From assembly GCA_947176385.1 (NCBI GenBank), contig CAMWQN010000002.1, positions 8,245 through 72,244 on the forward strand: a DNA stretch of 64,000 bases. The letters are read 5' to 3'. Below, piece by piece: positions 722-60,026 of this stretch. Below the pieces are notes generated by a model. It made no database searches and was not told the DNA's origin. It saw only the letters and a list, made by a program, of their open reading frames with translations. Position 1 is the stretch's first letter; every line of letters begins with the position of its first letter. Source of the stretch: an uncultured Rickettsiales bacterium. Lineage in GTDB: Bacteria; Pseudomonadota; Alphaproteobacteria; Rs-D84. Position numbers and translations under genes: made by a program.

Positions 722-739
722 TTCCATTGAACCAAGCAT

Positions 740-971
740 GGATGACTGGGTTCGGGACCTGAAAAATCCCATATAGAGACGATGCGGGTAATTACCATCA
801 TCGTAATCCGACACTACGTCGGTGCATTATTGCGCCGTTGTTTTATGAACCCGACTGTATTCCGGTCGGGGGTCTGTGATTATAAAACAGGACACGTCCA
901 AAGGTCACAGGGGTCATTTCTCTATATGATTTTTTCAATCCCCGACCGCCGGTTTTCATGGCGGTTTTTTT
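740..971 (+). promoter_or_regulatory. Structured 5' leader L1 with terminator/antiterminator architecture
   Basis: P1 is TGAAAAA (760-766) paired with TTTTTCA (931-937). Hairpin X1:X' is CCCGAC (850-855) with GGTCGGGGG (864-872). X2 CCCCGACC (940-947) overlaps the terminator ACCGCC-N9-GGCGGT plus T-run (945-971). Confidence 0.6.
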
Positions 972-1003
972 AGTAATCAATTTACAAACGGGGGAATAAT
1001 AAA

Positions 1004-3724: not shown

Positions 3725-3752
3725 TTGCAAGCCCTGTTTTTTATGTTATAAT
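3725..3752 (+). promoter_or_regulatory. Promoter TTGCAA-N16-TGtTATAAT (extended -10)
   Basis: TTGCAA at 3725-3730 and TGTTATAAT at 3744-3752. The same TTATGTTATAAT string recurs at 15818-15829. Confidence 0.55.
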
Positions 3753-3784
3753 TCATATTGCAACGGGAAACCGGCGCATGGGTG

Positions 3785-3912
3785 TAAGAACCCACAAACG
3801 AAAATATTTACTCCACTTTATCGGTTGGAGGGCTGTGATATATCTAAATAAGCAGCACTATACGTTTGTAGTTCTTAACCTCCAGCCGTTTGGTTTTTAC
3901 CAGACGGTTTTT
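3785..3912 (+). promoter_or_regulatory. Structured 5' leader C1 upstream of an HTH gene
   Basis: P1 is TAAGAAC (3785-3791) paired with GTTCTTA (3871-3877). X' is GGTTGGAGG (3823-3831). X2 CCTCCAGCC (3879-3887) overlaps the terminator CCGTTTGG-N6-CCAGACGG plus T-run (3886-3912). Confidence 0.55.
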
Positions 3913-3943
3913 GTTTAATCAAAAAAAAGATGGAGATAAAGAA

Positions 3944-4270
3944 ATGACACTAACAATCAATGCACGAACAATCGGATTCGCCCTGCAACGTGCACGACAC
4001 AGTACATCAATATTGTCAGACGATGTGGCACAATTGCTGAAAATATCACGCGCTGAATTAACCCTCTTTGAAAATGGCGAGGTTGAAATTCCCCCACACA
4101 TCCTTGAATCACTGTTTGCATTGGGCTTAATAACAATGCACACACGTTCCAGAATACGGGACTATAACCGCATGGCACGACAATGGCGACATATGCATAA
4201 CCGCGCAATTGATTTGCATAATAAACTGCAAAAAATTACCGACGCCACCAGCCCAATATTAAAACAATAA
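3944..4270 (+). CDS. Small XRE-like helix-turn-helix protein
   Basis: Start chosen at the ATG with GGAG RBS; the ORF track begins at 3890. HTH-like segment is ILSDDVAQLLKISRAELTLFENGEVEIP. Confidence 0.6.
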   Translation: MTLTINARTIGFALQRARHSTSILSDDVAQLLKISRAELTLFENGEVEIPPHILESLFALGLITMHTRSRIRDYNRMARQWRHMHNRAIDLHNKLQKITDATSPILKQ

Positions 4271-21884: not shown

Positions 21885-22580
21885 TTATTCATAATAGCAA
21901 CGGCTGCCTGCCGGAACAATCTGATATACACCTGTAACATCATAACCTTGACTTTCGGTTAAATAGCAGCCTTGGATTGTTTCATTTGCCCCAGGGTCTG
22001 ATTCCCCTGCTTTTGTGGTGGCACTCATTGGACACTGCGTACATCCCGTCATTCCCATTGCACCAAAACCCTCAATATAATTTTCCTTAATCGCGGAACT
22101 GGAACCATAAAAACCTGCAGCGCAACGATGTTTTGAACGTTTTTCCCACGTACAGGTACTGGTATTACATTCGGTCCACGTATTTGTCTGATATCCATTC
22201 CAAGAATCTTTCCAGGCATCCTCGTCATACTCAATTTCTGAATTTGGGTCACATGTCTTTGCCACACTGCACGGTTGGCATACATATACACCACCATTTC
22301 TATTGCTGCACCCCATTGCCACAAAATCTGGGTCCAACGTCAGGATATAGCCATCTTCGCACATATGACATATCTGAAATTTTCCGGCTTTACCAGTTGA
22401 TTTATTTATATAGCACAACGAATACGGAAACATATACTGTTTACAATGTGCAATATTCTGTGCGGGTTCTGCAATTGATGCACACGTTTCGTTATCAGAT
22501 GGCGCCATTCCGCATTGTGCATATGCTAATTCGGTCGTTAAAAATGTTGACATTGTAACGATTAAGAGTTTTTTATTCAT
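21885..22580 (-). CDS. Small secreted cysteine-rich protein, paralogue of 1004-1699 and 40216-40890
   Basis: Signal peptide present. The shared C-terminal module is RCAAGFYG..GCTQCP..GCYL..D.TG.Y..C.YE. Confidence 0.8.
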   Translation of the reverse strand: MNKKLLIVTMSTFLTTELAYAQCGMAPSDNETCASIAEPAQNIAHCKQYMFPYSLCYINKSTGKAGKFQICHMCEDGYILTLDPDFVAMGCSNRNGGVYVCQPCSVAKTCDPNSEIEYDEDAWKDSWNGYQTNTWTECNTSTCTWEKRSKHRCAAGFYGSSSAIKENYIEGFGAMGMTGCTQCPMSATTKAGESDPGANETIQGCYLTESQGYDVTGVYQIVPAGSRCYYE

Positions 22581-22812
22581 TATTCAATCTCCTGCTGTTG
22601 TAAAAACAAAACCACCATTTTTGGTGGTCAGGAGGTTGATGACAATTACAGGAATTGTGTTGCGTATTGGATATTTCGCAAACCCTCCTGACCCTGGGTC
22701 AGGAGTTTGTTTTTCGTCTGAACATCAAAACAGGCGCAATACGCGCCACAAGAATCCATTCTGACGCCTGTATAGAGGTCATCACACCCCATCAACGGAA
22801 TCCCCGTTGACA
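22581..22812 (-). promoter_or_regulatory. Structured 5' leader L2, homologous to 40891-41131
   Basis: See findings for detail. Elements are P1 TGATGAC/GTCATCA, the X1:X' hairpin, and X2 overlapping the terminator ACCACC-N6-GGTGGT plus U-tract. Confidence 0.65.
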
Positions 22813-22818
22813 TTATTT

Positions 22819-23095: not shown

Positions 23096-25858
23096 TTAGA
23101 ATTTGTAATTTACCCCTATATTTAATTCCATATTTGAATAGTCTGATGCTGTTCCATATTTTGCAGATAAATAACCATCAAAAGCCCTACCCAAAGTGAC
23201 TGATAGCCCGCATTCCAATTGAGCGACATTGAAGTCTTCGACTGATTTTATATCGCCAATATCACTTATGTTCACATTATTCCCTTTGGTTGATGTAATC
23301 AAATATGAAGGTCTGATGAATAAATCTATTGCTCCTAATGATTGTGAAAAAGTAATACCAAAATCTGCCAGAATCTGATTTATATTATCATACTCAACCG
23401 TTCGTCCATAGACATCGGTCAAACTATCCAAGGAGAGATTTATATATGTTATGCCAGCCACAGGAGCAAATTTAAAGCCAGTCCCAACATCAATTAAATA
23501 TTGTGTTTTAAGCATTATGCCTGTTTGCGTCCCGGAAAAATCTGTCATGAATCCATCATCTGTTTTGACCTCAGACTGTAATAATCCACCATAAACCCCA
23601 GCAAAAACATTAAAGTTTTTAGGATTATAACGCATATAGCCACCAAATATTTGGCTGTGACCGTCTATCCAACTTTCTAAATCGGCATGAATTTCTTTGG
23701 CTTTACCAGAGAAAGAATGTTTAGCCTCTCGTATTGAACCCATTACTCCCATAGTCCAATTGTTGCCCAGCGATTTGTTGTATCCGAAATCACCCCCGAA
23801 TACCTTTGAATCCATTTCTGCAATCGTATCATTCTTTATTTGGGCAAAAACAGGTGTTATCCATATATTGCTGTTTTTCGGTACATAAAATGCGCGATTC
23901 ATTGAATTATGCGTTTGATCTAACATTGCGCTTTGCATGGCGGCATATGCCACTATTTCTGGATAAGAACGTACAATGTGCGGTAAATCTGGCTCAATAT
24001 CATTATTATCGTCATTATTATCATTATTGTCATTAAAGTCGCCATCATAATCAGGATTTTTGATATTATTCATTTCCAATGCCCAGGTTTTGGCGCTTCC
24101 ATCATAGAAATTCACATCATACATATATGGGCTGCCGAATACGCGAAATACGCTGAAAGAATTGTCATTTCCCTGACCAGTAGCCGTCGCAAACACAATA
24201 TCCTGTTTGCCACGAATATCCGTATCATCTAATGCATGGACCACAAGCTTTGTTTGCCCCGTAACATCCCCATCTATATTTAGAATATCAGCCGTCATAT
24301 CGGCTGGATTTACATTCAGATGAATATAGGAATTGCTTTGCGTAATCAATGCACCCAGACGAACACTTTCAATATACGTGTTTGCCATATCAAATGTGGC
24401 GTTATTCAATGTCATAATTGGGTATTTATCGTTTGACAGGAATTGTCCTTTGCCATATATGCCATTATCAAATTTCATGACGGCATTATTTATATTTATG
24501 TTACCCGCGTTAATAACAAAATTGTTGATATATAACGCCCCTGTTCCATCACCACTGATATTAATATCATATGGGTTCGCGCCATCTATGTTGTCATTAA
24601 AAGTATACGAACCCATATTTTGCAAATCAAAGTTTAATGCCTTACCATTCGTACCGCCCATATATATGGCATTATAATTAACACCATTTTTATCAATTAT
24701 ATGATTTCCACTGAACTTGTAATTATTATTATCGACACGAAATGATATGTTATTTTCCGAATAAATCGCACCACCACATGCATCGCCATTTGCGGAATTC
24801 GCGTAATTGTTAATGAAATTGCCGGATATTCTGTCTATTTGTCCCAATGTATAAATTGCACCACCCATTGCCTGGGATTCTCCGACCGCATAGTTATTGA
24901 TAAAATCCGCCTGGATATTGCTTAGTACCGTTGATGTGCCGGGCAGGATGCTATAAAACATCGCACCACCGCTGGCATGTGATTTAGAAACAGCATGATT
25001 GTCGATAAAATTTCCTGTAATATCAGATAATTTATATTGTTCATCATTTGCATCTTGAACTATATAAATTGCGCCACCGGTAGCCGCTTGGTCTGCATTA
25101 ACCGAATTGCTGATAAAATCTGCATTTATTTTTCCTGGAACCCCATTAACATATAATGCACCACCACGCGCGTCCCATGTCGCATTGATATAATTTGCAA
25201 TAAAGTTTGCATTTATGCTGGTTTGTATTTCATAAGTCTTATCATTTGTTCCGTTATAAATCGCACCACCATATCCGGATTTTGAGCCTGATATATAATT
25301 CCCTATGAAATTTCCAGAAATATGCTCTATTTCACCTCGGTCACCATTGCTTCCACGGGCACTGTAAATTGCCCCACCCATTGCATAATTACTTGCAGTC
25401 ATAATTCCATTATTAATAAAATCCCCATATAATTCCCGAATAAGGCTGGTATTATGTAACGCACCACCGTCAACCGAGCTATTTATTTCATGGGACGTAA
25501 TTTTGTTTGATATAAAATCCATGTATATTTTGTTTTCCCATGTGGAAACCTGTGTGGTCTTATCTGTGGTATTACGAACATATCCAATCATTTTTCCCAT
25601 TATCGGTGTAATGTTCGCGCCAACCGACGAAACCGAATAGTTCCAGTTTTGGTCAACAATGCCATCATTGGTTTCCATATATGTGGTTATGTTACCAGGT
25701 GATGATGTTTGTTGAAAATTCATTTCATATCCACTGGGGATTGATGATTGTCCGTTCGCATATAAATAGTCCAATGTAGGCGTATAATTTTCAAAATCAA
25801 ATGCCCCAAAAGCACTGTTAACAGATAAAATAAGCGGTAATATAAATATTTTTTGCAT
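23096..25858 (-). CDS. Autotransporter with polymorphic-membrane-protein (Pmp)-type repeats
   Basis: Signal peptide present. Seven alternating FxxN / GGA[ILM] repeats (for example GNFIGNY..YGGAIYNG). C-terminal beta-barrel region ends in ..GVNYKF. Confidence 0.85.
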   Translation of the reverse strand: MQKIFILPLILSVNSAFGAFDFENYTPTLDYLYANGQSSIPSGYEMNFQQTSSPGNITTYMETNDGIVDQNWNYSVSSVGANITPIMGKMIGYVRNTTDKTTQVSTWENKIYMDFISNKITSHEINSSVDGGALHNTSLIRELYGDFINNGIMTASNYAMGGAIYSARGSNGDRGEIEHISGNFIGNYISGSKSGYGGAIYNGTNDKTYEIQTSINANFIANYINATWDARGGALYVNGVPGKINADFISNSVNADQAATGGAIYIVQDANDEQYKLSDITGNFIDNHAVSKSHASGGAMFYSILPGTSTVLSNIQADFINNYAVGESQAMGGAIYTLGQIDRISGNFINNYANSANGDACGGAIYSENNISFRVDNNNYKFSGNHIIDKNGVNYNAIYMGGTNGKALNFDLQNMGSYTFNDNIDGANPYDINISGDGTGALYINNFVINAGNININNAVMKFDNGIYGKGQFLSNDKYPIMTLNNATFDMANTYIESVRLGALITQSNSYIHLNVNPADMTADILNIDGDVTGQTKLVVHALDDTDIRGKQDIVFATATGQGNDNSFSVFRVFGSPYMYDVNFYDGSAKTWALEMNNIKNPDYDGDFNDNNDNNDDNNDIEPDLPHIVRSYPEIVAYAAMQSAMLDQTHNSMNRAFYVPKNSNIWITPVFAQIKNDTIAEMDSKVFGGDFGYNKSLGNNWTMGVMGSIREAKHSFSGKAKEIHADLESWIDGHSQIFGGYMRYNPKNFNVFAGVYGGLLQSEVKTDDGFMTDFSGTQTGIMLKTQYLIDVGTGFKFAPVAGITYINLSLDSLTDVYGRTVEYDNINQILADFGITFSQSLGAIDLFIRPSYLITSTKGNNVNISDIGDIKSVEDFNVAQLECGLSVTLGRAFDGYLSAKYGTASDYSNMELNIGVNYKF

Positions 25859-26118
25859 TGCGATACCCCCATGTATAAAAAAAGACCGTCATTGGATGAC
25901 GGTCGGGGAGTTCACAAATCATTCTGTTATTGATTCCATTGGTCTTTCGGCGAACCGTATTATATAACCAACAGCCCCCCGACCAGTATATTTGGTCAGG
26001 GATAAATAACGATGCAAAAACAACAGAATGTCGGATTAACGACGCTTCTAAGATTTGCACCGAACAGAATAGACCTGTGAAAGTCCCGAACACGTTTCCC
26101 AACGAGTTCACAAAAAAT
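25859..26118 (-). promoter_or_regulatory. Structured 5' leader L3, homologous to 36753-37020
   Basis: P1 is TTCACA/TGTGAA. X1:X' is CCCTGACCA with TGGTCGGGGGG. X2 CTCCCCGACC overlaps the terminator GACCGTCAT-N3-ATGACGGTC plus U-tract. Confidence 0.65.
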
Positions 26119-34787: not shown

Positions 34788-36752
34788 TCAATCAATATCC
34801 ATATTATACACAGAATACACACTTCCATTATATTCAACATTCAACGCCTTTTTTCTGGATTCTGGTATCATATCACCATATAACACATGATTTCCATATT
34901 GTACTGACAAACTGGGGTGCGTGCGCCAGTCATTATGCAACCATACGGAATATTGTCCAAATCGCATAACCCGACCACAATCAGTCAAACTGTCGGCGCC
35001 ACGCCCATACCCGATTGTCATTAAATTATCCGGACACTTGTTACGTTTACCACTGTTACCATAATTTGTATAATTTATATCATTCCAATACCCAGGTCCA
35101 ACATTCGCGCACTGCGTCGCACGTGCCGTTGCCAAATACGTACCCGCATCACACTTTATCTGACATTCATTAATCGACTGCGGTGCTGTATTATCAGGTG
35201 CACGGTCAGCATAATAATCCGGACAATCTTGACAAGAATTCCCAGACGCATACTGTCCCATCGGACATACGATTTTGCCATCAATACACACAAAATCAGC
35301 TGGACAAACCGTACACACATCACCATCACGAAAATATCCGTCATTACACCGCCAGGGGCAATCGTTACCATCAGGACTGCCTGCACCAATATAAATTGCA
35401 TTTTCCGGTGCATTTGTACATGCTTTATTATACTTAAACCGCATATACTCCCCTAAATGTACAGCATTCGCCAGATATCGACCGACGGTATCTGTCTGAA
35501 CCCAGTAAATATCAGAGCTCCAATATCTATCTCCTTGCCATGGCAAATCTTTAGTATATACGCCATCAGGTGTTTCAAACAACGCCCCCCCTATCCTACA
35601 ATTGGCAGCGTTTGTAATAAGCCCACTAACAGAATATGTAGTCACCCTTAAATTGTCAGCATTAATCAGCCTGTCCTCAGATGGCAATACAGATTCCAGT
35701 ACACCAGCATCAAATTCAGGACACCGAAACATTGTATTATTATTGCAATAATTGGCACCAGTGCACACAGAACACATATTGCCATTCAACCAATATCCAT
35801 CAAAACAATTAATTTGTGTGCTGCCGGCGGGACAAGTTGAATTCTGCGGACAGACATCACACCGATTGACATTCTTATAAAATCCTGAAACACAATCAAA
35901 ATCCGTCACAGATCTGCACGTTGAATTTTCCACAGGACACATTTCGCATACGGCACCATTATCAAAAAAGCCCGGATTACAATTTGGTGGCATACCAGAA
36001 TCGCCCGACGCATACGATAGACATTGACCATCTGAATGCCAGAACAACCCATCCGGACATTTTTGTTCCTTGTGTCCGGGACATACAACACCATCGGGAC
36101 ATGGAACACATTCTGCACCCATTTTATAAAATCCGGGGGCGCAATATTGCATATAATTGCTAATTGTCGCGATACCATCTGGACAATAATATTCACCCGG
36201 ACACTGAAAACAATGGTATGAACTTTTATAATAACCTTCGATACACGTAACAGATGAAATCGTTGAACCAGCGGGACAATGCAATTCAGCCCCACAGTCC
36301 ATACAATACGTACCATTCCAATTATAATACAAATACCCAGCACCACAACTGATTAATTTTTCACCATCACAAACATGCCCAGCACAAGACCGACACATAA
36401 ACCCATCACGAAACCAGCCGTCATCACAATGAAATGTATCGGTCCCACCCACGCATGTTGCATTATTAACACATTGTGAACAAACACCGTTATATAAATA
36501 TGTTCCAGGCATGCACGAAAATTCTGTGGGTCCTGTACATGTGCTGTTTGGTGGGCATGCCAGACATTGGTTATTACCATCTGCATAAAATCCGTCATTA
36601 CAAGAATATGTTTCACCATCACATGTTGCGTTATACATACAGTTGACACAATTACCACCAGATAAATACTGATTCACATCACATGTTGCAGCATTGGCAA
36701 CACCACCTGCGCCCACCAACAACAGTACAACAGAAACCAACAGTCGTATCAT
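34788..36752 (-). CDS. Secreted protein made of furin/VSP-like cysteine-rich repeats
   Basis: Start placed at MIRLLVSVVLLLVGAGGVANA with AAGGGGA RBS. The ORF-track start at 36782 falls inside the leader terminator. Repeats have the form C..G.Y...G.C..CP.NSTC throughout. Confidence 0.8.
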   Translation of the reverse strand: MIRLLVSVVLLLVGAGGVANAATCDVNQYLSGGNCVNCMYNATCDGETYSCNDGFYADGNNQCLACPPNSTCTGPTEFSCMPGTYLYNGVCSQCVNNATCVGGTDTFHCDDGWFRDGFMCRSCAGHVCDGEKLISCGAGYLYYNWNGTYCMDCGAELHCPAGSTISSVTCIEGYYKSSYHCFQCPGEYYCPDGIATISNYMQYCAPGFYKMGAECVPCPDGVVCPGHKEQKCPDGLFWHSDGQCLSYASGDSGMPPNCNPGFFDNGAVCEMCPVENSTCRSVTDFDCVSGFYKNVNRCDVCPQNSTCPAGSTQINCFDGYWLNGNMCSVCTGANYCNNNTMFRCPEFDAGVLESVLPSEDRLINADNLRVTTYSVSGLITNAANCRIGGALFETPDGVYTKDLPWQGDRYWSSDIYWVQTDTVGRYLANAVHLGEYMRFKYNKACTNAPENAIYIGAGSPDGNDCPWRCNDGYFRDGDVCTVCPADFVCIDGKIVCPMGQYASGNSCQDCPDYYADRAPDNTAPQSINECQIKCDAGTYLATARATQCANVGPGYWNDINYTNYGNSGKRNKCPDNLMTIGYGRGADSLTDCGRVMRFGQYSVWLHNDWRTHPSLSVQYGNHVLYGDMIPESRKKALNVEYNGSVYSVYNMDID

Positions 36753-37020
36753 CAAAATCCCCTTGTAAAAAAAGACCGTCATCAGAACACGACGGTCGGG
36801 GTGGTTCGAAAATCATCTTATCATTGATTCTGTCAGTCTTTCGGCGGAACCGTGTTTTATAACCGACAGCCCCCCGACTGAGATAGTCAGGGATAAATAA
36901 CGATACAAAGTCACAGGAAATTATTGGAATAACGATGACCTATGCTTTTGCACCGGATAAGAATAGCCTTCGACAGCCCCGAACCTGTGTCCCCACAAGT
37001 TCGTTTAAATAATAACATAA
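36753..37020 (-). promoter_or_regulatory. Structured 5' leader L4, homologous to 25859-26118
   Basis: P1 is TCGAA/TTCGA. X1:X' is CCCTGACT with AGTCGGGGGG. X2 CCACCCCGACC overlaps the terminator GACCGTC-N10-GACGGTC plus U-tract. Confidence 0.65.
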
Positions 37021-37104: not shown

Positions 37105-37260
37105 CAAAAAAATGCCACCTAAAAAAACACAGGCGGCTGGAGGTTGAGACCAATAATCAAGTAGTATTGTCGGTTTATTCAATATATTCACCGAACTCCA
37201 ACCAGTGTTGGATTACAATATCCGCAATGCGGATACGACTTGATATGGGGTCTCAATCCC
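37105..37260 (-). promoter_or_regulatory. Structured leader module C3, stacked upstream of L4
   Basis: P1 is TTGAGACC (37256->37249) paired with GGTCTCAA (37151->37144). The hairpin is CCAAC-ACTG-GTTGG. X2 CCTCCAGCC (37143->37135) overlaps the terminator GCCGCCT-N10-AGGTGGC plus U-tract. Confidence 0.55.
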
Positions 37261-37374
37261 AGCGCAACAAATCGTTGCACCGGCTGCATTATACTACAAC
37301 TTTTTTATTTCGCTACAATTTTATTAAAAAAAGTTCCGATAAATATCGGAACTTTTTTTACGCATTTGTAATTT

Positions 37375-40215: not shown

Positions 40216-40890
40216 TTATGGTTTAATAGGTTCCAATTCAACAATTTCACCGCCGGTTAACCCATTGGAATATTCACAATTTTCTGTATATGTACCACTG
40301 CCAGTTGTATCTGAGAAAGATGTTCCTGCAGGCAAATAGCAACTTGTGACATATTTGCTGCCGGCTGCACTGGTACCGTATGTGCCACTGCCAGATTGTG
40401 GACATCTGGTACAACCTGATGTTCCATTGGTACTGGAACCATAATATCCTGCGGCGCAACGATATGTAGTTGATATTACAGCACAACCACCTGTACATGT
40501 GCATGAACGTCTTGCCTGTTGTTCGTATCCAGCGGTTCCAGTTGCAGTGAAACCGATATCACTGGCGCATGTACCGCATGATATGCAACATTGATACACC
40601 AGTTCATATGTAGTGTTACACGAATTGCTGAGTTCTGATATTGATACTTGTTTTCTTTCTGTGCCACTTGGGCATGATGTACAACTTTGAAAACGTATTA
40701 CATTTCCCGAACCACTTTTATAACATACATTTGTATGGTTGCCTTCCCGACATGTTGTTATTGCCTCCATTGGGGCAGCAGTACATGTTGTTGACGTACA
40801 CACGCCATTATCGAGTGAAAGTACAGCATTGGCTGGTTTTTCTATTGGCATGATTGTTATCATTGCCAATATAATTAGTTTATGTTTCAT
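40216..40890 (-). CDS. Small secreted cysteine-rich protein, paralogue of 1004-1699 and 21885-22580
   Basis: The shared C-terminal module is YRCAAGYYGSS..GCTRCP...SCYLPAGTSFSDTTGSGTYTENCEYS. Confidence 0.8.
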   Translation of the reverse strand: MKHKLIILAMITIMPIEKPANAVLSLDNGVCTSTTCTAAPMEAITTCREGNHTNVCYKSGSGNVIRFQSCTSCPSGTERKQVSISELSNSCNTTYELVYQCCISCGTCASDIGFTATGTAGYEQQARRSCTCTGGCAVISTTYRCAAGYYGSSTNGTSGCTRCPQSGSGTYGTSAAGSKYVTSCYLPAGTSFSDTTGSGTYTENCEYSNGLTGGEIVELEPIKP

Positions 40891-41131
40891 TATTCAATCT
40901 CCTGTTTTTTCGTAATGAAAAACCACCCAAAATTCAGGTGGTCAGGAGGTTGATGACAATCCATAGAATTGTGTGCTTATTCGTTATATTCGCAACCCTC
41001 CTGCCCACAAATTGGTCAGGAGTTGTTTTTCCGTCGTAACAGTAAAATTGGCGCAAAATGCGCGCCCCTATAAACATATTCCGACGCTATGGCAGAGGTC
41101 ATCACACCTCATCATTGGAATTCCCAATGAC
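40891..41131 (-). promoter_or_regulatory. Structured 5' leader L5, homologous to 22581-22812
   Basis: Same helices as L2 with compensatory changes. The terminator is ACCACC-N9-GGTGGT plus U-tract (40922-40942). Confidence 0.65.
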
Positions 41132-41137
41132 AAAATT

Positions 41138-41166
41138 ATTATATACGCTATATATGATTAAAACAA
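41138..41166 (-). promoter_or_regulatory. Sigma70-like promoter TTGTTT-N17-TATAAT
   Basis: On the minus strand, TTGTTT runs 41166->41161 and TATAAT runs 41143->41138. Confidence 0.6.
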
Positions 41167-41207
41167 GTAATAAAAAAAATCTGGCGATGCCAGATTTTTG
41201 AAATCCA

Positions 41208-44200
41208 CTATATTCCCAAGCGATGTGTTAATTTCATCATGAATATAGATTCGTTTCCATAATCATCACAGTTGTTTGGATTTACACGATAAATAAATCC
41301 CAACGCCCCATCTGTAAACGCGCCAAAATTATGTCGGACGGACCCAGCAAAACGCAATTCGCGCACATCCGGACGCAGGTCAACATCTGCGACATGACTG
41401 TCACGGATAACCAGATCATAATTACCATCGTCACTGCCAACCACATCATACTGGGCAGATGCATATTTCATTGCGCCATGCGATACCGCCAATGGGCGCG
41501 CAACAGATAAACTGATATTTCCCCAATCCAGACCAATACCAAACGCATTTGAATCAACATCTGACATACCCAATATAAAGTCCCCACTTGCGTCCGCACG
41601 CGTTCTGGCAAATGTAGCGCGCGCCGTCAATGCGAATTTATCCCACGGTGCATAACGCATAACTGTATCAATATATGTTGTATCACCCCCGCCCAAATTC
41701 AGCAATCCGCCCGTCTGCGCCCCCAGAATTGTATTTGATTCTGTGGCATGACCAACAGCGGTTGTAAACCCAAACTTATCGCCATGCCACGCCAGGTGCG
41801 ATTGCCCGCCCTGGAACAATCCCAGACGTGCTGGATTAAATTGTGACGTTACGGTCGGGTCATTTTCCAATAAACCTTCGTCTGTTATTTCACCGGAAAA
41901 TACGCGTCCACCAAATGACCAGCGACCATGATTATATATCGCATCAGACACAATTGAATTTGACGCCATTGATAATATTGGATTCGCCATTCCATCAAAG
42001 CGTGACGCGCCATCTGTCAAATAATGCTGATATCCCGCATTCAAATTCCAATTACCACGTGAATAATCAAAACGCAATGCATCCAGTCCTGACAAATTGT
42101 CATTGTATGCACGCGGCGAACGCATCAATGAAAAACCAAAGTTTCCAATCTGAGCACGCTGAACATTATCGTCGCGTGTTTTCAATTCACCCAATACATC
42201 CCCCATATACAAAGCCCGACGTCCCGCGTCACCAGATACCGCAAATTCATTTTGCCACACACGTGGCATGCGCAAACTGCCATCCGAACTTTCCAACACA
42301 TCAAAGAATGGTGCACTGATTTTATCAACAGATGGTCTGAAGGCACTGGACCCGCGGAACATTGTATTTGATGCCGCGCGCCAATATGCATCGCCATTGC
42401 TGGACACAATATCCGTACCATTATAATAATAAACCTTGGTTCCAGGTTTGGTCGCGCGTTCCAAATTTATCAGACCATATCCAAAGACTTCTTTGAACAC
42501 ATCCAAATAATCTTCACCATCTTGCATCCAGCGCACATTATATTCATTTGGTAACACATACATTGATTGTAAATAACTGCGCAAAGAATCCTGGGTTGTA
42601 GCCACACCATTGGTAAATGTTCCCAAATATGGTCCATCCGCCGTCAATGCCAACAATGCAAATACTTGCTTGTTATCCAAATAATCAAATGCAGACTTTA
42701 CCACACCCGCAGCACCTGCGGCACTGGCGACCGCCATTTCTGCATTTACACCCGCTGATGCAAAACACCATGGGTCGATACTGCTGCTGCCACGACCGGC
42801 TGCGCCACAAACGCGTGCGCGATAATATGTATCATCTTCTGTCGTAGTGGTTCCATTGGTATCCGACCACTGTGATAATGCATATTTACCAGATGGTGAA
42901 AATCCAGCAATTGAATCTGTCCCGGATGTACCAGCTGTACCGGTTATACCAACAGCAACCACTGACATAAACAAATGTTCCAAATTCTTAAAAACTAATG
43001 GTGCTGCGTTTTCAAATGTTGCCTCTCTTGTTCTGCCGGTAAAATTACTGTCTGTTTCATATCCACCTGTTGAAAATACCAACAATGGTGTCGTACTGTT
43101 TCCGACCGCAGTAAACAACGTCGCCGCATATGCACTGGGCAAATCATTTGAACCACTGATACCATCACCCTTATCGCGGTCATAATATAAATCAACAAAT
43201 TTTGCAAATTCAGTACGGTAATCACTGGTTTCCGCAGCCAATATATCATCAATTACTTTTGTATCAATTGAATACAACGGCGCAATAACAGATGCATTTG
43301 CCAACACATCCGCTCTGGATCGCCCATTACCGTCTTTATTTAAAGTGGCAGCCAGTGATAAAGCCTGATAGTTATGATAATCAACATTCCCCAATTCGCG
43401 ATTTAATACCAACTGTTTGGTGTCACCAGCAACAACCTGCAAATATGCCACATCCACGGCACCATCTGCATTACTGTCAAAATACAGAAAATTATTTTTT
43501 ATACCGATATATCCAGTATATGTCGGACTGTTGTCACCAGCAGCCTTGGCAGTAAACTTATTACCATCCATTGTCAACGTTAATGTTCCCAGTCCCGGCA
43601 ATGTTATCGTATCACCGGTGGCAAAAGTGTCACTTGCCCTTTCAAATGTACCATTGCGCGCATCATCTGATACTTCTTTGAAGCCCCGTCCACCACCGGT
43701 GCGGAAAATAGTCATTTGACCATTTGGCATAAACCCAACATAGTCAGCATTTGGATATCCCGAAAGACTGCCCCCCAGAACCTTGGCCAGGCGATTATCA
43801 TCATTGCTGGCACTGGCATTTTGAACTGCGGTATTTGATCCGGATAAATCGAACAAATCCACCATATTTGGATCTTCGTACGTTGAATCATCCAACAATG
43901 AATTATTATCCGTACCACGTTTAATCAAATTATTGTAATACTTGCTGGACAGCAGATCATTACTGGCACCATTCAGACTGGTTGAATCATTTAATGTCGT
44001 CCAAACCAACAAAACATCATCCAATGAATCTTTCCCAGCAGAATAATCCCCAGCAGGCTTCATCGCAGCATTTACACCGTTTGCAGTAACCAACGCAACA
44101 TTTGTTGGACGTCCGCCCTGAATATCATATTCGCCCAATGCGCCACTTAATGGAATCGGCGCATTTGAAAATTGATTACGCAATGTACGCATCCCCAGAT

Positions 44201-44906
44201 ACCCACGTGCAAATGGCGAATACCCATGCATCATCAACAGATAGTTTTGTTTGAATGCATTCGACATAAGTTCAAAATTCTGTTTGTAAATCGCTGTAGA
44301 ACTGCTGGGACCATATACTTCCAAGTTTGCAGAATACGATTGCGCTTCGTCTGCCGCGGTTGGCAATGCCGGTCCATAATTCAATGCAAACGCTTCTTTG
44401 CCAAGACCACTTTCACCACCACCGGAATTATCACCACCGATTGGGCGATTTCCTGCCGTCCCGGAATTATCGTTTCCATTGCCAGGGTCAAATACATCCG
44501 TTAATAAAAACAGTCCACCTATAACAACGGCGGCACCCGCCGCCGCCAATGTCAAACTCTGGGCGGATGATAGCCCACCAAACAAACCACCGCTGCCCTT
44601 GGGCTTATTACGACTGTTATAATTCTTTATTTGTCGGTCACAACGCGATGCATCTGCGCCATACATCTGTAAAATCTGGGCAGCACGCATATCATTATTC
44701 ATCAGTGCAGTACAAACCAGTGACAATCCTGTTGAATCGGTATAGTTAACATCTGCCCCGCTGTTTATCAGAATCTGAACCTGTTGAATATCAGCATTTT
44801 TTGCCGCAGACAACAATTGTGCTGCCACCATAAAATCATTAGATGCCGCATGCACCGACAGTGGCGCAAAAAATATCATAAACAACAATAATCTGATGTA
44901 TTTCAT
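41208..44906 (-). CDS. Large envelope protein: signal peptide, ankyrin repeat, glycine-zipper segment, large passenger-like region, C-terminal beta-rich domain
   Basis: The ANK-like segment is NADIQQVQILINSGADVNYTDSTGLSLVCTALMNNDMRAAQILQMYGAD. The glycine-zipper is GGLFGGLSSAQSLTLAAAGAAVVIGGLF. The last ~300 aa show an alternating beta-strand pattern. Confidence 0.7.
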   Translation of the reverse strand: MKYIRLLLFMIFFAPLSVHAASNDFMVAAQLLSAAKNADIQQVQILINSGADVNYTDSTGLSLVCTALMNNDMRAAQILQMYGADASRCDRQIKNYNSRNKPKGSGGLFGGLSSAQSLTLAAAGAAVVIGGLFLLTDVFDPGNGNDNSGTAGNRPIGGDNSGGGESGLGKEAFALNYGPALPTAADEAQSYSANLEVYGPSSSTAIYKQNFELMSNAFKQNYLLMMHGYSPFARGYLGMRTLRNQFSNAPIPLSGALGEYDIQGGRPTNVALVTANGVNAAMKPAGDYSAGKDSLDDVLLVWTTLNDSTSLNGASNDLLSSKYYNNLIKRGTDNNSLLDDSTYEDPNMVDLFDLSGSNTAVQNASASNDDNRLAKVLGGSLSGYPNADYVGFMPNGQMTIFRTGGGRGFKEVSDDARNGTFERASDTFATGDTITLPGLGTLTLTMDGNKFTAKAAGDNSPTYTGYIGIKNNFLYFDSNADGAVDVAYLQVVAGDTKQLVLNRELGNVDYHNYQALSLAATLNKDGNGRSRADVLANASVIAPLYSIDTKVIDDILAAETSDYRTEFAKFVDLYYDRDKGDGISGSNDLPSAYAATLFTAVGNSTTPLLVFSTGGYETDSNFTGRTREATFENAAPLVFKNLEHLFMSVVAVGITGTAGTSGTDSIAGFSPSGKYALSQWSDTNGTTTTEDDTYYRARVCGAAGRGSSSIDPWCFASAGVNAEMAVASAAGAAGVVKSAFDYLDNKQVFALLALTADGPYLGTFTNGVATTQDSLRSYLQSMYVLPNEYNVRWMQDGEDYLDVFKEVFGYGLINLERATKPGTKVYYYNGTDIVSSNGDAYWRAASNTMFRGSSAFRPSVDKISAPFFDVLESSDGSLRMPRVWQNEFAVSGDAGRRALYMGDVLGELKTRDDNVQRAQIGNFGFSLMRSPRAYNDNLSGLDALRFDYSRGNWNLNAGYQHYLTDGASRFDGMANPILSMASNSIVSDAIYNHGRWSFGGRVFSGEITDEGLLENDPTVTSQFNPARLGLFQGGQSHLAWHGDKFGFTTAVGHATESNTILGAQTGGLLNLGGGDTTYIDTVMRYAPWDKFALTARATFARTRADASGDFILGMSDVDSNAFGIGLDWGNISLSVARPLAVSHGAMKYASAQYDVVGSDDGNYDLVIRDSHVADVDLRPDVRELRFAGSVRHNFGAFTDGALGFIYRVNPNNCDDYGNESIFMMKLTHRLGI

Positions 44907-59847: not shown

Positions 59848-59989
59848 ATCCTATCCCTTTACATTCTTGTTTATAATATCATATTCATGGGAATAAAAAA
59901 AGACAAAATATGTAACTACACCCAAAATTATCTTGATTAAATCGTTTAAAACAATGTTTTTTACAGACACGTATTTTATAAATAAAAAA

Positions 59990-60009
59990 ATCCCGCCGAA
60001 TGGCGGGAT
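59990..60009 (-). terminator. Intrinsic terminator after rplQ
   Basis: The minus strand reads ATCCCGCC-attc-GGCGGGAT followed by TTTTTTT. Confidence 0.7.
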
Positions 60010-60026
60010 GTATTCAGCAGCCAACA

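Follow-up and report, generated by a model that had tools for sequence, protein, structure and literature searches.

In two leaders of Firmicutes, the S-box (SAM-I) riboswitch and the pyr/PyrR attenuator of Bacillus, three mutually exclusive helices share strands, the anti-antiterminator lies inside the sensing domain, a junction is combined with a pseudoknot, and the 3' strand of the switching helix abuts the expression platform, which is followed by an intrinsic terminator with a U-tract. T-box leaders are multi-helix 5' leaders of 200-300 nucleotides (nt), present in many copies per genome, in which a default terminator is overridden by a stabilised antiterminator. Cyclic di-GMP (c-di-GMP) riboswitches (GEMM-I and GEMM-II) stand before adhesin, pilus, flagellar and other surface or secreted protein genes and control them by transcription termination. 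In vsp/vlp-type surface families of Mycoplasma, the upstream region is more conserved than the coding sequence. Here we analyse a leader, L5, that shares features with each of these systems. It lies on the minus strand of a 64,000-nt stretch of DNA from an uncultured Rickettsiales bacterium of the order Rs-D84 (GenBank assembly GCA_947176385.1, contig CAMWQN010000002.1, positions 8,245 to 72,244; hereafter the window, whose own numbering is used throughout), directly upstream of a gene for a cysteine-rich (Cys-rich) exported protein. An earlier note, made from the letters of the window, had described L5 as a second copy of another leader in the window, L2. We find that both belong to a previously undescribed family of ~215-nt, highly structured 5' leaders, and we consider it quite probable that the element is a cis-acting attenuation switch with two conformations around an intrinsic terminator, with translational control added.

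All the architectural features named above for the S-box and pyr systems recur in the L5 family, with helix P3 as the anti-antiterminator and P1 as the switching helix, but there is no sequence or covariance-model similarity to either. In contrast to these systems, the switching strands of the leader mimic the Shine-Dalgarno sequence (SD; GAGG, X' and the SD itself) and the anti-SD (CCUC, X1 and X2), three strands of each kind, so that the same switch is able to mask the real SD; the ON state has a covarying helix of its own, Alt, made from both partners of a single OFF-state strand; and the genes behind the leader encode exported proteins, not metabolic enzymes. Unlike T-box leaders, it has no specifier loop, T-box sequence or bulge, its X':X2 antiterminator is a continuous duplex, its genes are not aminoacyl-tRNA synthetase or amino-acid genes, its lineage is alphaproteobacterial, and the Rfam T-box model gave no match at the gathering threshold in the window or at E ≤ 10 in the L5 region. 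The likeness to GEMM riboswitches is that one RNA class precedes many surface and secreted genes; the leader has no GEMM model match, a different fold and a far higher density (at least 8 copies in 64 kb). As in the vsp/vlp-type families, upstream regions are more alike than coding sequences (L5 and L2 are 82% identical over ~300 columns, against 27% for the Cys-rich exported proteins downstream of them), but here RNA structure is conserved through compensatory change, together with a terminator switch, and no recombination or phase-variation tract is present. Across the whole window, the 4227 covariance models of Rfam 15 recognised two tRNAs only at the gathering threshold, despite the 8 leader copies; in the L5 region at E ≤ 10, the best matches scored 13-20 bits against cut-offs of 40-100. 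In the literature on Enterousia/Rs-D84 and on anti-antiterminators associated with secreted proteins we found no description of the leader RNA. The threefold SD/anti-SD mimicry, the exchange of a splint for Alt, the double pseudoknot, the lineage and the density in a reduced genome are new; Enterousia genomes measure 0.75-1.0 Mb and lack the TCA (tricarboxylic acid) cycle and respiration (PMC12306168).

Both leaders fold well below their shuffles (z = -5.3 and -5.2; 0 of 200 shuffles), and the window contains precisely two occurrences of the 24-mer ATTGTCATCAACCTCCTGACCACC, for which none would be expected. Taken alone, the contrast between leader and gene identity in L5 and L2 is compatible with gene conversion of the upstream region. 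We nonetheless give practically no credence to a recent duplication, gene conversion or repeat element devoid of RNA function: copies from different species average 63% identity but have retained all helices through double substitutions, the leader always points the same way as the gene behind it, and no terminal repeats or target duplications were seen. The earlier note had left duplication as the explanation should orthologues lack a compensatory pattern. This pattern was found in 55 diverse orthologues and paralogues, and the covariation analysis refutes pure duplication, barring artefactual alignments. At the level of L5 itself, the compensatory change that the note saw in hairpin 1 is real (two pairs, TT/AA in L5 versus AC/GT in L2), but its reading of the 3' arm was not: the arm reads TCCAATGA, not CCCAATGA, and the eighth pair is therefore G·U. 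Other elements stand in the sequence as the note had them, namely the GGCGC/GCGCC hairpin, the two complementary strands of P1, the same single A·G mismatch of X' against both X1 and X2, and the terminator ACCACC-N9-GGTGGT; with the T5 that follows it, the terminator covers 40942-40918.

The proposed structure was scored on a 55-sequence MAFFT alignment of diverse copies, with slid partners and shuffled alignments as controls. In this alignment 93.9% of cells were paired, compared with 38-51% when the partners were slid. Double changes were present in 33 of 53 pairs and amounted to 420 cells, against 125 ± 9 in shuffles (0/500), and the covariation score was 0.431 compared with 0.178 (0/500). 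L5 is thus a copy of a structured regulatory leader whose helices are kept by compensatory changes. Among the individual helices, P1 was paired in 55 of 55 copies (100% of cells) with 5 of its 6 pairs covarying through GC, CG, AU and UA variants; the 5'-terminal hairpin H1 had 98.4% of cells paired and covariation in 7 of 8 pairs, P1b in 5 of 6, P4 in 3 of 3 (UA 32, CG 20, others) and the terminator in 4 of 7. One pair of the H2 hairpin (alignment columns 32:47) was GC in 38 copies, AU in 10 and GU in 7, with zero mismatches. The top pairs of a model-free ranking by mutual information with average-product correction (APC) belong to P1, P1b and H1, and RNAalifold independently returned H1, P1, P1b, P2b, P3, P4 and the terminator, 25 of 45 pairs being compensatory. 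P1 could be established only by comparison between copies, because the minimum-free-energy (MFE) fold of a single sequence hides it behind the local H2 hairpin. The leader also stands upstream of the genes for three homologues of the L5 protein, where P1 is altered on both strands (TGAGAAC/GTTCTCA, TCGAAAC/GTTTCGA and TCAGAAC/GTTCTGA). The mutual-information scan further revealed a long-range pair, U41106-A40972, that is UA in 98 of 107 copies and CG in 9, with 0 exceptions; the near-invariant G-C pairs that flank it extend it to a 3-bp tertiary helix, PK2 (GUG/CAC). Neither PK2, nor Alt (ACAAU/AUUGU), nor the pairing of X2 with the SD, nor a family of far more than two copies had been noticed in the earlier note.

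These helices also account for much of the conserved sequence. The earlier note had taken conserved stretches that it regarded as single-stranded for candidate contact sites of a ligand or factor; they are in fact strands of P1, PK2, H2, X1, X2 and Alt, that is, helix strands under double constraint and not free contact surfaces. The joining strands GACGAAAAAC, CACAAUUC and GAUUGU are nearly invariant. The conservation of the P4 loop is accounted for by no helix; its consensus, GAAUAUAUUGAAUAA (40977-40991, minus strand), includes the palindrome AAUAUAUU, and the L5 variant is AAUAUAACGAAUAA. When the window was searched for sequences that could pair with the loop in trans, only the leaders themselves and matches at chance level came up. 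A short open reading frame (ORF) beginning at a conserved AUG just after H1 (M-G/R-C...) raises the question of leader-peptide attenuation. The motif AUG-(G/A)GG-UGU is present in 97 of the 107 full-length copies, with Cys, the residue in which the regulated proteins abound, as its third codon; a ribosome at this place would cover the 5' strand of P1 and PK2 and block both helices. However, the ORF runs from 7 to more than 99 codons with no conserved stop position, it has no SD, the AU of its AUG is paired in H1, and the AUG is replaced by ACG, GCG or GUA in some full-length copies and by CUG or UUC in divergent copies of the window. We consider the apparent conservation of the peptide to result from the RNA constraints on H2, PK2 and P1. 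An attenuator of the trp/his type was consequently rejected, on the variable length, the missing SD and the loss of the AUG in divergent copies, and leader-peptide control is very improbable in our estimate. The preference of the earlier note for a function at the RNA level holds on these same grounds; the difference in ORF length on which it had relied is confirmed, at 15 versus 48-55 codons from an AUG that both leaders share.

At the centre of the proposed attenuation switch lies the strand X', which can pair with either X1 or X2. Divergent copies alter the three strands together: X2/X' fall into the classes UGAC/GUCA, UGC/GCA, AACC/GGUU, AGCC/GGYU, CCCCGAC/GUCGGGG and ACCU/AGGU, and among the copies of the window X1, X', X2 and the SD co-vary as CUCCUG/CAGGAG, CUCCA/UGGAG and CCCCGA/UCGGGG, the last with the SD GGGGGA. 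When partners were permuted among 23 distinct classes, the mean duplex energy of X1:X' was -10.6 ± 0.6 kcal/mol, compared with -14.6 kcal/mol for own partners, and that of X':X2 was -14.9 ± 0.6 compared with -19.7 kcal/mol (0/500 permutations for each). Since X' cannot pair with X1 and X2 at once, X1:X' and X':X2 are alternatives. The latter duplex is longer and more perfect, and it is the stronger in 112 of 113 copies (-21.0 vs -15.8 kcal/mol); it measures 10-12 bp in most copies, and in L5 7 bp, a mismatch and 2 bp, and it takes in 3-6 nt of the terminator's 5' arm. A second exchange involves Alt, which emerged from a 47-sequence alignment and joins ACAAU (40972-40968) to AUUGU (40960-40956). 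Its central pair is AU in 27 sequences and UA in 16, and in the CCCCGA class the helix reads UCAU/AUGA. Because Alt is built from strands with which PK2 and P1 are formed, and has the 3' strand of P1b in its loop, it is possible only with the OFF junction open. The ON set of helices (X':X2, P4 and Alt) pairs 88.1% of cells and the OFF set (X1:X', P4 and terminator) 88.9%, both far above slid and shuffled controls. The terminator, antiterminator and anti-antiterminator of an attenuator are thus all found here as mutually exclusive helices that share strands, each of them maintained in evolution.

The terminator itself is listed by a scan for intrinsic terminators (40943-40921, minus strand; 10 pairs, then TTTCATT) and occurs in nearly all members of the family; over 113 copies it averages 8.5 bp and -10.3 kcal/mol, and the U-tract ~5 nt. 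In many copies an SD follows 20-40 nt beyond it. In the MFE folds of L5 and L2, this SD, CAGGAGATTGA, pairs with TCAACCTCCTG of X2, which has three possible partners in all: X' (as the antiterminator), the SD, or GAGG of H2. The flanks of the SD follow the class of X2. With a UG-type X2, 46 of 94 copies have CA before GGAG, against 0 of 9 among the remaining copies (p = 0.004); an X2 of CUCCA goes with U before GGAG, and an X2 of CCCC with the SD GGGGGA. The energy of the X2:SD duplex differs only slightly between own and permuted partners (-10.1 vs -9.8). With nearest-neighbour energies, which ignore pseudoknots and folding kinetics, X1:X' is kept in 109 of 113 transcripts that end before the 3' arm of the terminator and in 112 of 113 complete leaders, and the L5 fold has -77.7 kcal/mol in the OFF state and -66.5 kcal/mol in the ON state. 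Thus, the predicted ground state is OFF.

The switch that we propose would work as follows. In the OFF state, the strand 41107-41098 of the H2 loop (GUG-UGAUGAC) would splint two distant segments, CAC through PK2 and GUCAUCA through P1, and the junction so formed, with P2, P3 (X1:X') and P4, would be closed by P1b. X1 would lock up X', leaving the 3' end of X2 free, so that the terminator hairpin would be completed before the U-tract; in transcripts that read through, X2 would pair with the SD region. In the ON state, the two distant segments would instead pair with each other as Alt and H2 would close locally, while X':X2 would remove the base of the terminator stem and free the SD, allowing transcription and translation to proceed. 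A putative effector, either a small ligand or an RNA-binding factor, would shift the balance between the two states.

Several points weigh against this interpretation. Termination and antitermination by the element, its OFF ground state and an effector that shifts the balance are what we infer from the sequences. The covariation of the X cores rests on ~35 divergent copies in ~6 sequence classes, and relatedness inflates the counts; it is limited to divergent copies because the pattern with which most copies were collected fixed the cores of X1, X' and X2. The 5' arm of H2, GAGG, could pair either with the 3' arm of its own hairpin or with CCUC in X2, as RNAalifold has it. PK2 runs across P1 as well as P1b, an arrangement that the model assumes to be sterically feasible. 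In L5, the antiterminator is interrupted by the A·G mismatch and a constrained fold keeps the terminator, so this copy may switch poorly. Finally, some copies have no SD near the terminator and translational control is not universal; hence the terminator would be the common output and SD masking an addition. The weakened antiterminator of L5 would also suit a constitutive structural leader that stabilises the mRNA or sets a fixed low level of read-through and translation, the alternative pairings being folding intermediates. No effector has been identified, and H1 begins at the inferred start site; a 5'-terminal hairpin is a known design for stabilising mRNA, as in the ompA 5' untranslated region. 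However, a constitutive terminator between a consensus promoter and its own gene would be wasteful, and Alt and X':X2 are kept by compensatory change though both are incompatible with the OFF state, which argues for selection for a second functional state. We regard a constitutive role as unlikely.

As to the effector of the attenuation switch, we give similar odds to a small-ligand riboswitch and to a factor-dependent antiterminator. The first would be a metabolite or second-messenger riboswitch of the OFF type, with the pseudoknotted P1/PK2/P1b/P2/P3/P4 junction as the aptamer and a ligand that locks X' into P3; it is a more specific version of our explanation and does not contradict it, and we entertain it tentatively. 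A multi-helix junction closed by the switching helix P1, the 3' strand of which borders directly on the expression platform, resembles an aptamer, as do the two pseudoknots and the near-invariant joining strands. The antiterminator locally beats P3 by the energies given above, as is expected if P3 needs help. c-di-GMP riboswitches also precede many surface and secreted protein genes. On the other hand, strands that serve two helices already explain much of the invariance, the predicted ground state is OFF even without ligand, no transporter or biosynthetic genes lie downstream to give a clue to the ligand, and for one riboswitch class a density of at least 8 copies per 64 kb in a ~0.9-Mb genome would be unusually high.

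The second possibility, which we hold as loosely as the first, is that a trans-acting RNA-binding protein or RNA overrides the default OFF state, in the manner of PyrR, BglG or the T-box. Its target would be the ON fold (the X':X2/P4/Alt three-way junction), the 5' strand 41107-41098, or X1. This would agree with a predicted OFF state in 109-112 of 113 copies, and with the fact that the most conserved nucleotides not needed for the OFF state, the P4 loop and the stretch CACAAUUC...GAUUGU, lie within the region enclosed by X':X2. A very large number of copies before a single class of genes resembles a regulon with a dedicated regulator, and a short subclass of leaders before small helix-turn-helix-like (HTH-like) proteins suggests a regulatory cascade. 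However, neither a candidate factor nor a known protein-binding motif was seen, the Rfam models of protein-dependent leaders gave no match, and the HTH-like proteins are of DNA-binding types with weak Pfam support (17.5 bits against a cut-off of 27).

The coordinates of these elements, and of the other copies of the leader in the window, are collected in Table 1.

Table 1. Elements of the L5 locus and further leader copies, in window coordinates.
Feature	Positions	Strand	Sequence and remarks
L5 leader	40891-41133	-	5' of the Cys-rich exported-protein gene 40216-40890
Regulated gene of L5	40216-40890	-	224-aa Cys-rich protein; signal peptide; no Pfam family
Promoter	41138-41166	-	sigma-70-type; -35 TTGTTT 41166-41161, 17-nt spacer, -10 TATAAT 41143-41138
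H1, 5'-terminal hairpin	41111-41131	-	GTCATTGG / CCAATGAT
H2 region	41095-41110	-	GAGGTGTGATGACCTC; local hairpin GAGG/CCTC
H2 loop contents	41107-41105; 41104-41098	-	5' strands of PK2 (GTG) and of P1 (TGATGAC)
P1	41104-41098 with 40957-40951	-	TGATGAC with GTCATCA; long-range helix
P1b	41087-41092; 40966-40961	-	5' strand CCATAG; 3' strand CTATGG, in Alt loop
P2 arm	41032-41086	-	P2a CGTCG/CGACG, 41086-41082 / 41036-41032
P2b	41066-41062 / 41054-41050	-	GGCGC/GCGCC
X1	41014-41022	-	CTCCTGACC; anti-SD-like 5' strand of P3; anti-antiterminator strand
X'	40997-41006	-	GGGCAGGAGG; SD-like; partner either X1 or X2
P4 hairpin	40974-40994	-	TGC/GCA; conserved A/U-rich loop
CACAAT	40968-40973	-	CAC 40973-40971, PK2 3' strand; ACAAT 40972-40968, Alt 5' strand
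ATTGTCATCA	40951-40960	-	ATTGT 40960-40956, Alt 3' strand; overlaps P1 3' strand by 2 nt
X2	40940-40949	-	CCTCCTGACC; anti-SD-like; 3' ACC also opens terminator stem
Intrinsic terminator	40918-40942	-	ACCACCT / GGGTGGT, then TTTTT; directly before CAGGAGATTGAATAATG
SD region and start	SD 40904-40894; ATG 40890-40888	-	SD CAGGAGATTGA; 5' end of gene 40216-40890
L2, closest paralogous leader	22581-22813	-	upstream of 231-aa Cys-rich gene 21885-22580
Copy	735-1003	+	X1, X', X2 and SD with CCCCGA/UCGGGG core; upstream of Cys-rich exported paralogue 1004-1699
Short-form copy	3740-3943	+	CUCCA/UGGAG core; upstream of 108-aa HTH-like gene 3944-4270
Short-form copy	15820-16044	+	CUCCAACC/GGUUGGAG core; upstream of 78-aa gene 16045-16281
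Copy	25859-26110	-	upstream of 920-aa autotransporter gene 23096-25858; covariance model E = 2e-6
Copy	36783-37000	-	directly upstream of ~655-aa Cys-rich exported protein; covariance model E = 4e-6
Copy	37106-37290	-	tandem, ~100 nt upstream of the 36783-37000 copy; no ORF of its own

The promoter of L5, TTGTTT-N17-TATAAT, was correctly placed by the earlier note; it is absent from the list of a consensus scan because its -35 box matches TTGACA at 3 of 6 bases only. Transcription probably starts near G41131. In 83 members of the family a conserved cTTG-N17-TATAAT stands at a constant ~7 nt from H1, and every unit of the family has its own promoter of this kind, often directly after the terminator of the preceding gene. 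In the 70 nt upstream of the -10 box, operator-like conservation was not found, the -35 TTG and upstream terminators being all that is conserved there. Own promoters and the lack of a conserved operator fit control exerted through the leader. The L5 promoter is directly preceded by a strong terminator (41175-41199, minus strand) of the gene for a 1232-aa protein with a weak ankyrin-repeat match (41208-44906, minus strand), and an upstream terminator likewise insulates many other family members. Inside the leader, the P2b hairpin (GGCGCG...GCGCC, 41050-41066, minus strand), with a conserved U-run that is also seen in other copies, is flagged as terminator-like by the scan and may be an earlier termination or pause site. 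The P2 arm is not present in the short subclass.

We collected more than 130 distinct copies of the leader in metagenome-assembled genomes (MAGs) of gut Candidatus Enterousia/Rs-D84, and one on a phage. Scanning one genome per species for a DNA pattern in which the X1, X' and X2 cores were fixed gave at least 119 loci. An nhmmer profile search confirmed 108 of the 119 listed, the other 11 being chance matches in unrelated phyla or environments; among the loci listed, nearly all come from Ca. Enterousia or gut Alphaproteobacteria MAGs of human, chicken, ruminant, horse and rabbit. Pattern matches in metagenomes comprised 48 true members and 72 chance matches out of 120. One of these matches lies on ERZ1026780 NODE_1 (935,024 bp), probably a closed Enterousia genome, and a further locus (Ga0137307_100400) carries 4 leader copies within 12 kb. 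No two of the 107 full-length distinct copies are more than 93% alike, and their mean identity is the 63% given above.

In the window, iterated nhmmer searches and a covariance model of the half from X1 to the terminator found at least 8 copies (Table 1). Those at 25859-26110 and 36783-37000 were outside all training alignments, yet every element is visible in their sequence. A further covariance-model match, at 59924-60014, was rejected as an ordinary terminator, and the housekeeping genes of the window (grpE, tpiA, surA-like) have no leader copy. Extrapolated from 8 copies in 64 kb, a genome of 0.75-1.0 Mb would hold from tens to ~100 leaders. The leaders at 37106-37290 and 36783-37000 (minus strand) stand in tandem, with a terminator each, ahead of one large Cys-rich gene. 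They could be a tandem switch, or the distal one could be an orphan left after gene loss.

The lack of an ORF directly behind the 37106-37290 copy bears on another explanation, namely that the element is a stand-alone small RNA of ~215 nt that acts in trans, for instance through an exposed anti-SD on other mRNAs, the downstream genes being incidental. In favour of this are a promoter and a terminator belonging to the element itself, the free CCUCC motif that leaders would expose once terminated, and a few members that have no nearby SD. But the orphan copy and the leader next to it stand in tandem before one gene, more than 90% of copies lie at a fixed short distance before an ORF on the same strand (20-60 nt from the U-tract to the start), and the flanks of the SD covary with X2. 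An independent role in trans therefore seems improbable to us, and is possible only as a by-product of termination.

The genes behind the leader are of a restricted kind. A Sec-type signal peptide opens ~115 of the ~125 ORFs behind the leaders, and most of the proteins are small and Cys-rich; they belong to several unrelated families and include one autotransporter. A gut 'Alphaproteobacteria bacterium' MAG encodes a hypothetical protein identical to the product of the L5 gene, whose homologues number 112, nearly all of them in gut alphaproteobacterial MAGs. In the window, the genes 40216-40890, 21885-22580, 1004-1699 and 34788-36782 form a paralogous family of Cys-rich exported proteins with the C-terminal motif CA[AS]G[YF]YG...GC..CP...CY[LI]P. 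Searches of the regulated Cys-rich proteins against Pfam and PDB sequences returned no family and no solved relative, so that the gene products give no hint of the signal. The called start of the 664-aa ORF (ATG at 36782, minus strand) falls inside the terminator hairpin of its leader (ATGACGGTCTTTTTTT); the real start is probably an ATG ~30 nt downstream (36752-36782 region, minus strand), behind AAGGGGA and at the head of the signal peptide MIRLLVSVV... The gene of one homologue with 50% protein identity (P0005; L001:2000-2520) is not preceded by a leader, so that members of the protein family can do without it.

A full-length leader (nhmmer 5.6e-39) also precedes the gene for a 162-aa Cys-rich exported protein on the contig IMGVR_UViG_3300010163_000459 (9872-10593). 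This protein shares the C-terminal motif of the L5 gene product (CASGYYG...GCNQCP...SECYLPNGTSGNDTTG), and the contig encodes a T7-like head-tail connector (3.5e-83), a terminase and a DnaB helicase. Since leader and gene lie on a genuine phage contig, the leader-gene cassette has been phage-borne at least once.

The short subclass of leaders, which has CUCCA/UGGAG cores, precedes genes of a different kind. Five short-form copies stand before small cytoplasmic HTH-like (XRE-type) proteins of 70-116 aa that are not exported: two in the window (3944-4270 and 16045-16281, plus strand) and three elsewhere (loci L126:3-267, L050:157-415 and L084:4027-4255). The protein at L084 reaches the cut-off of Pfam HTH_3 (30 bits), and the window proteins have only weak matches, to HTH_31.

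Almost nothing is known of gene regulation, or of interactions with the host or with neighbours, in the uncultured Ca. Enterousia. There is in our view an even chance that the leader is a new class of effector-responsive RNA switch, be it a riboswitch or the target of an antitermination factor, that gates perhaps one tenth of the genes of a gut symbiont of this kind. The gated set would then be essentially the exported, mostly Cys-rich repertoire together with small HTH-like regulators in a genome of ~0.9 Mb; phages of the lineage have captured the element. Three mimics of the SD and three of the anti-SD would let one conformational change control both termination and ribosome binding. The leader already marks the real transcription starts and start codons of many hypothetical genes, such as that of the 664-aa ORF, and its more than 130 diverse copies, in which both conformers are visible by covariation, form a large natural data set and make it a good candidate for the discovery of a new ligand or factor. 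If an effector does shift the balance between the two states, a large set of exported proteins would be co-regulated; and if one RNA precedes most genes for exported proteins, it would define the main regulon of the lineage and offer a route to the signal that governs its lifestyle.

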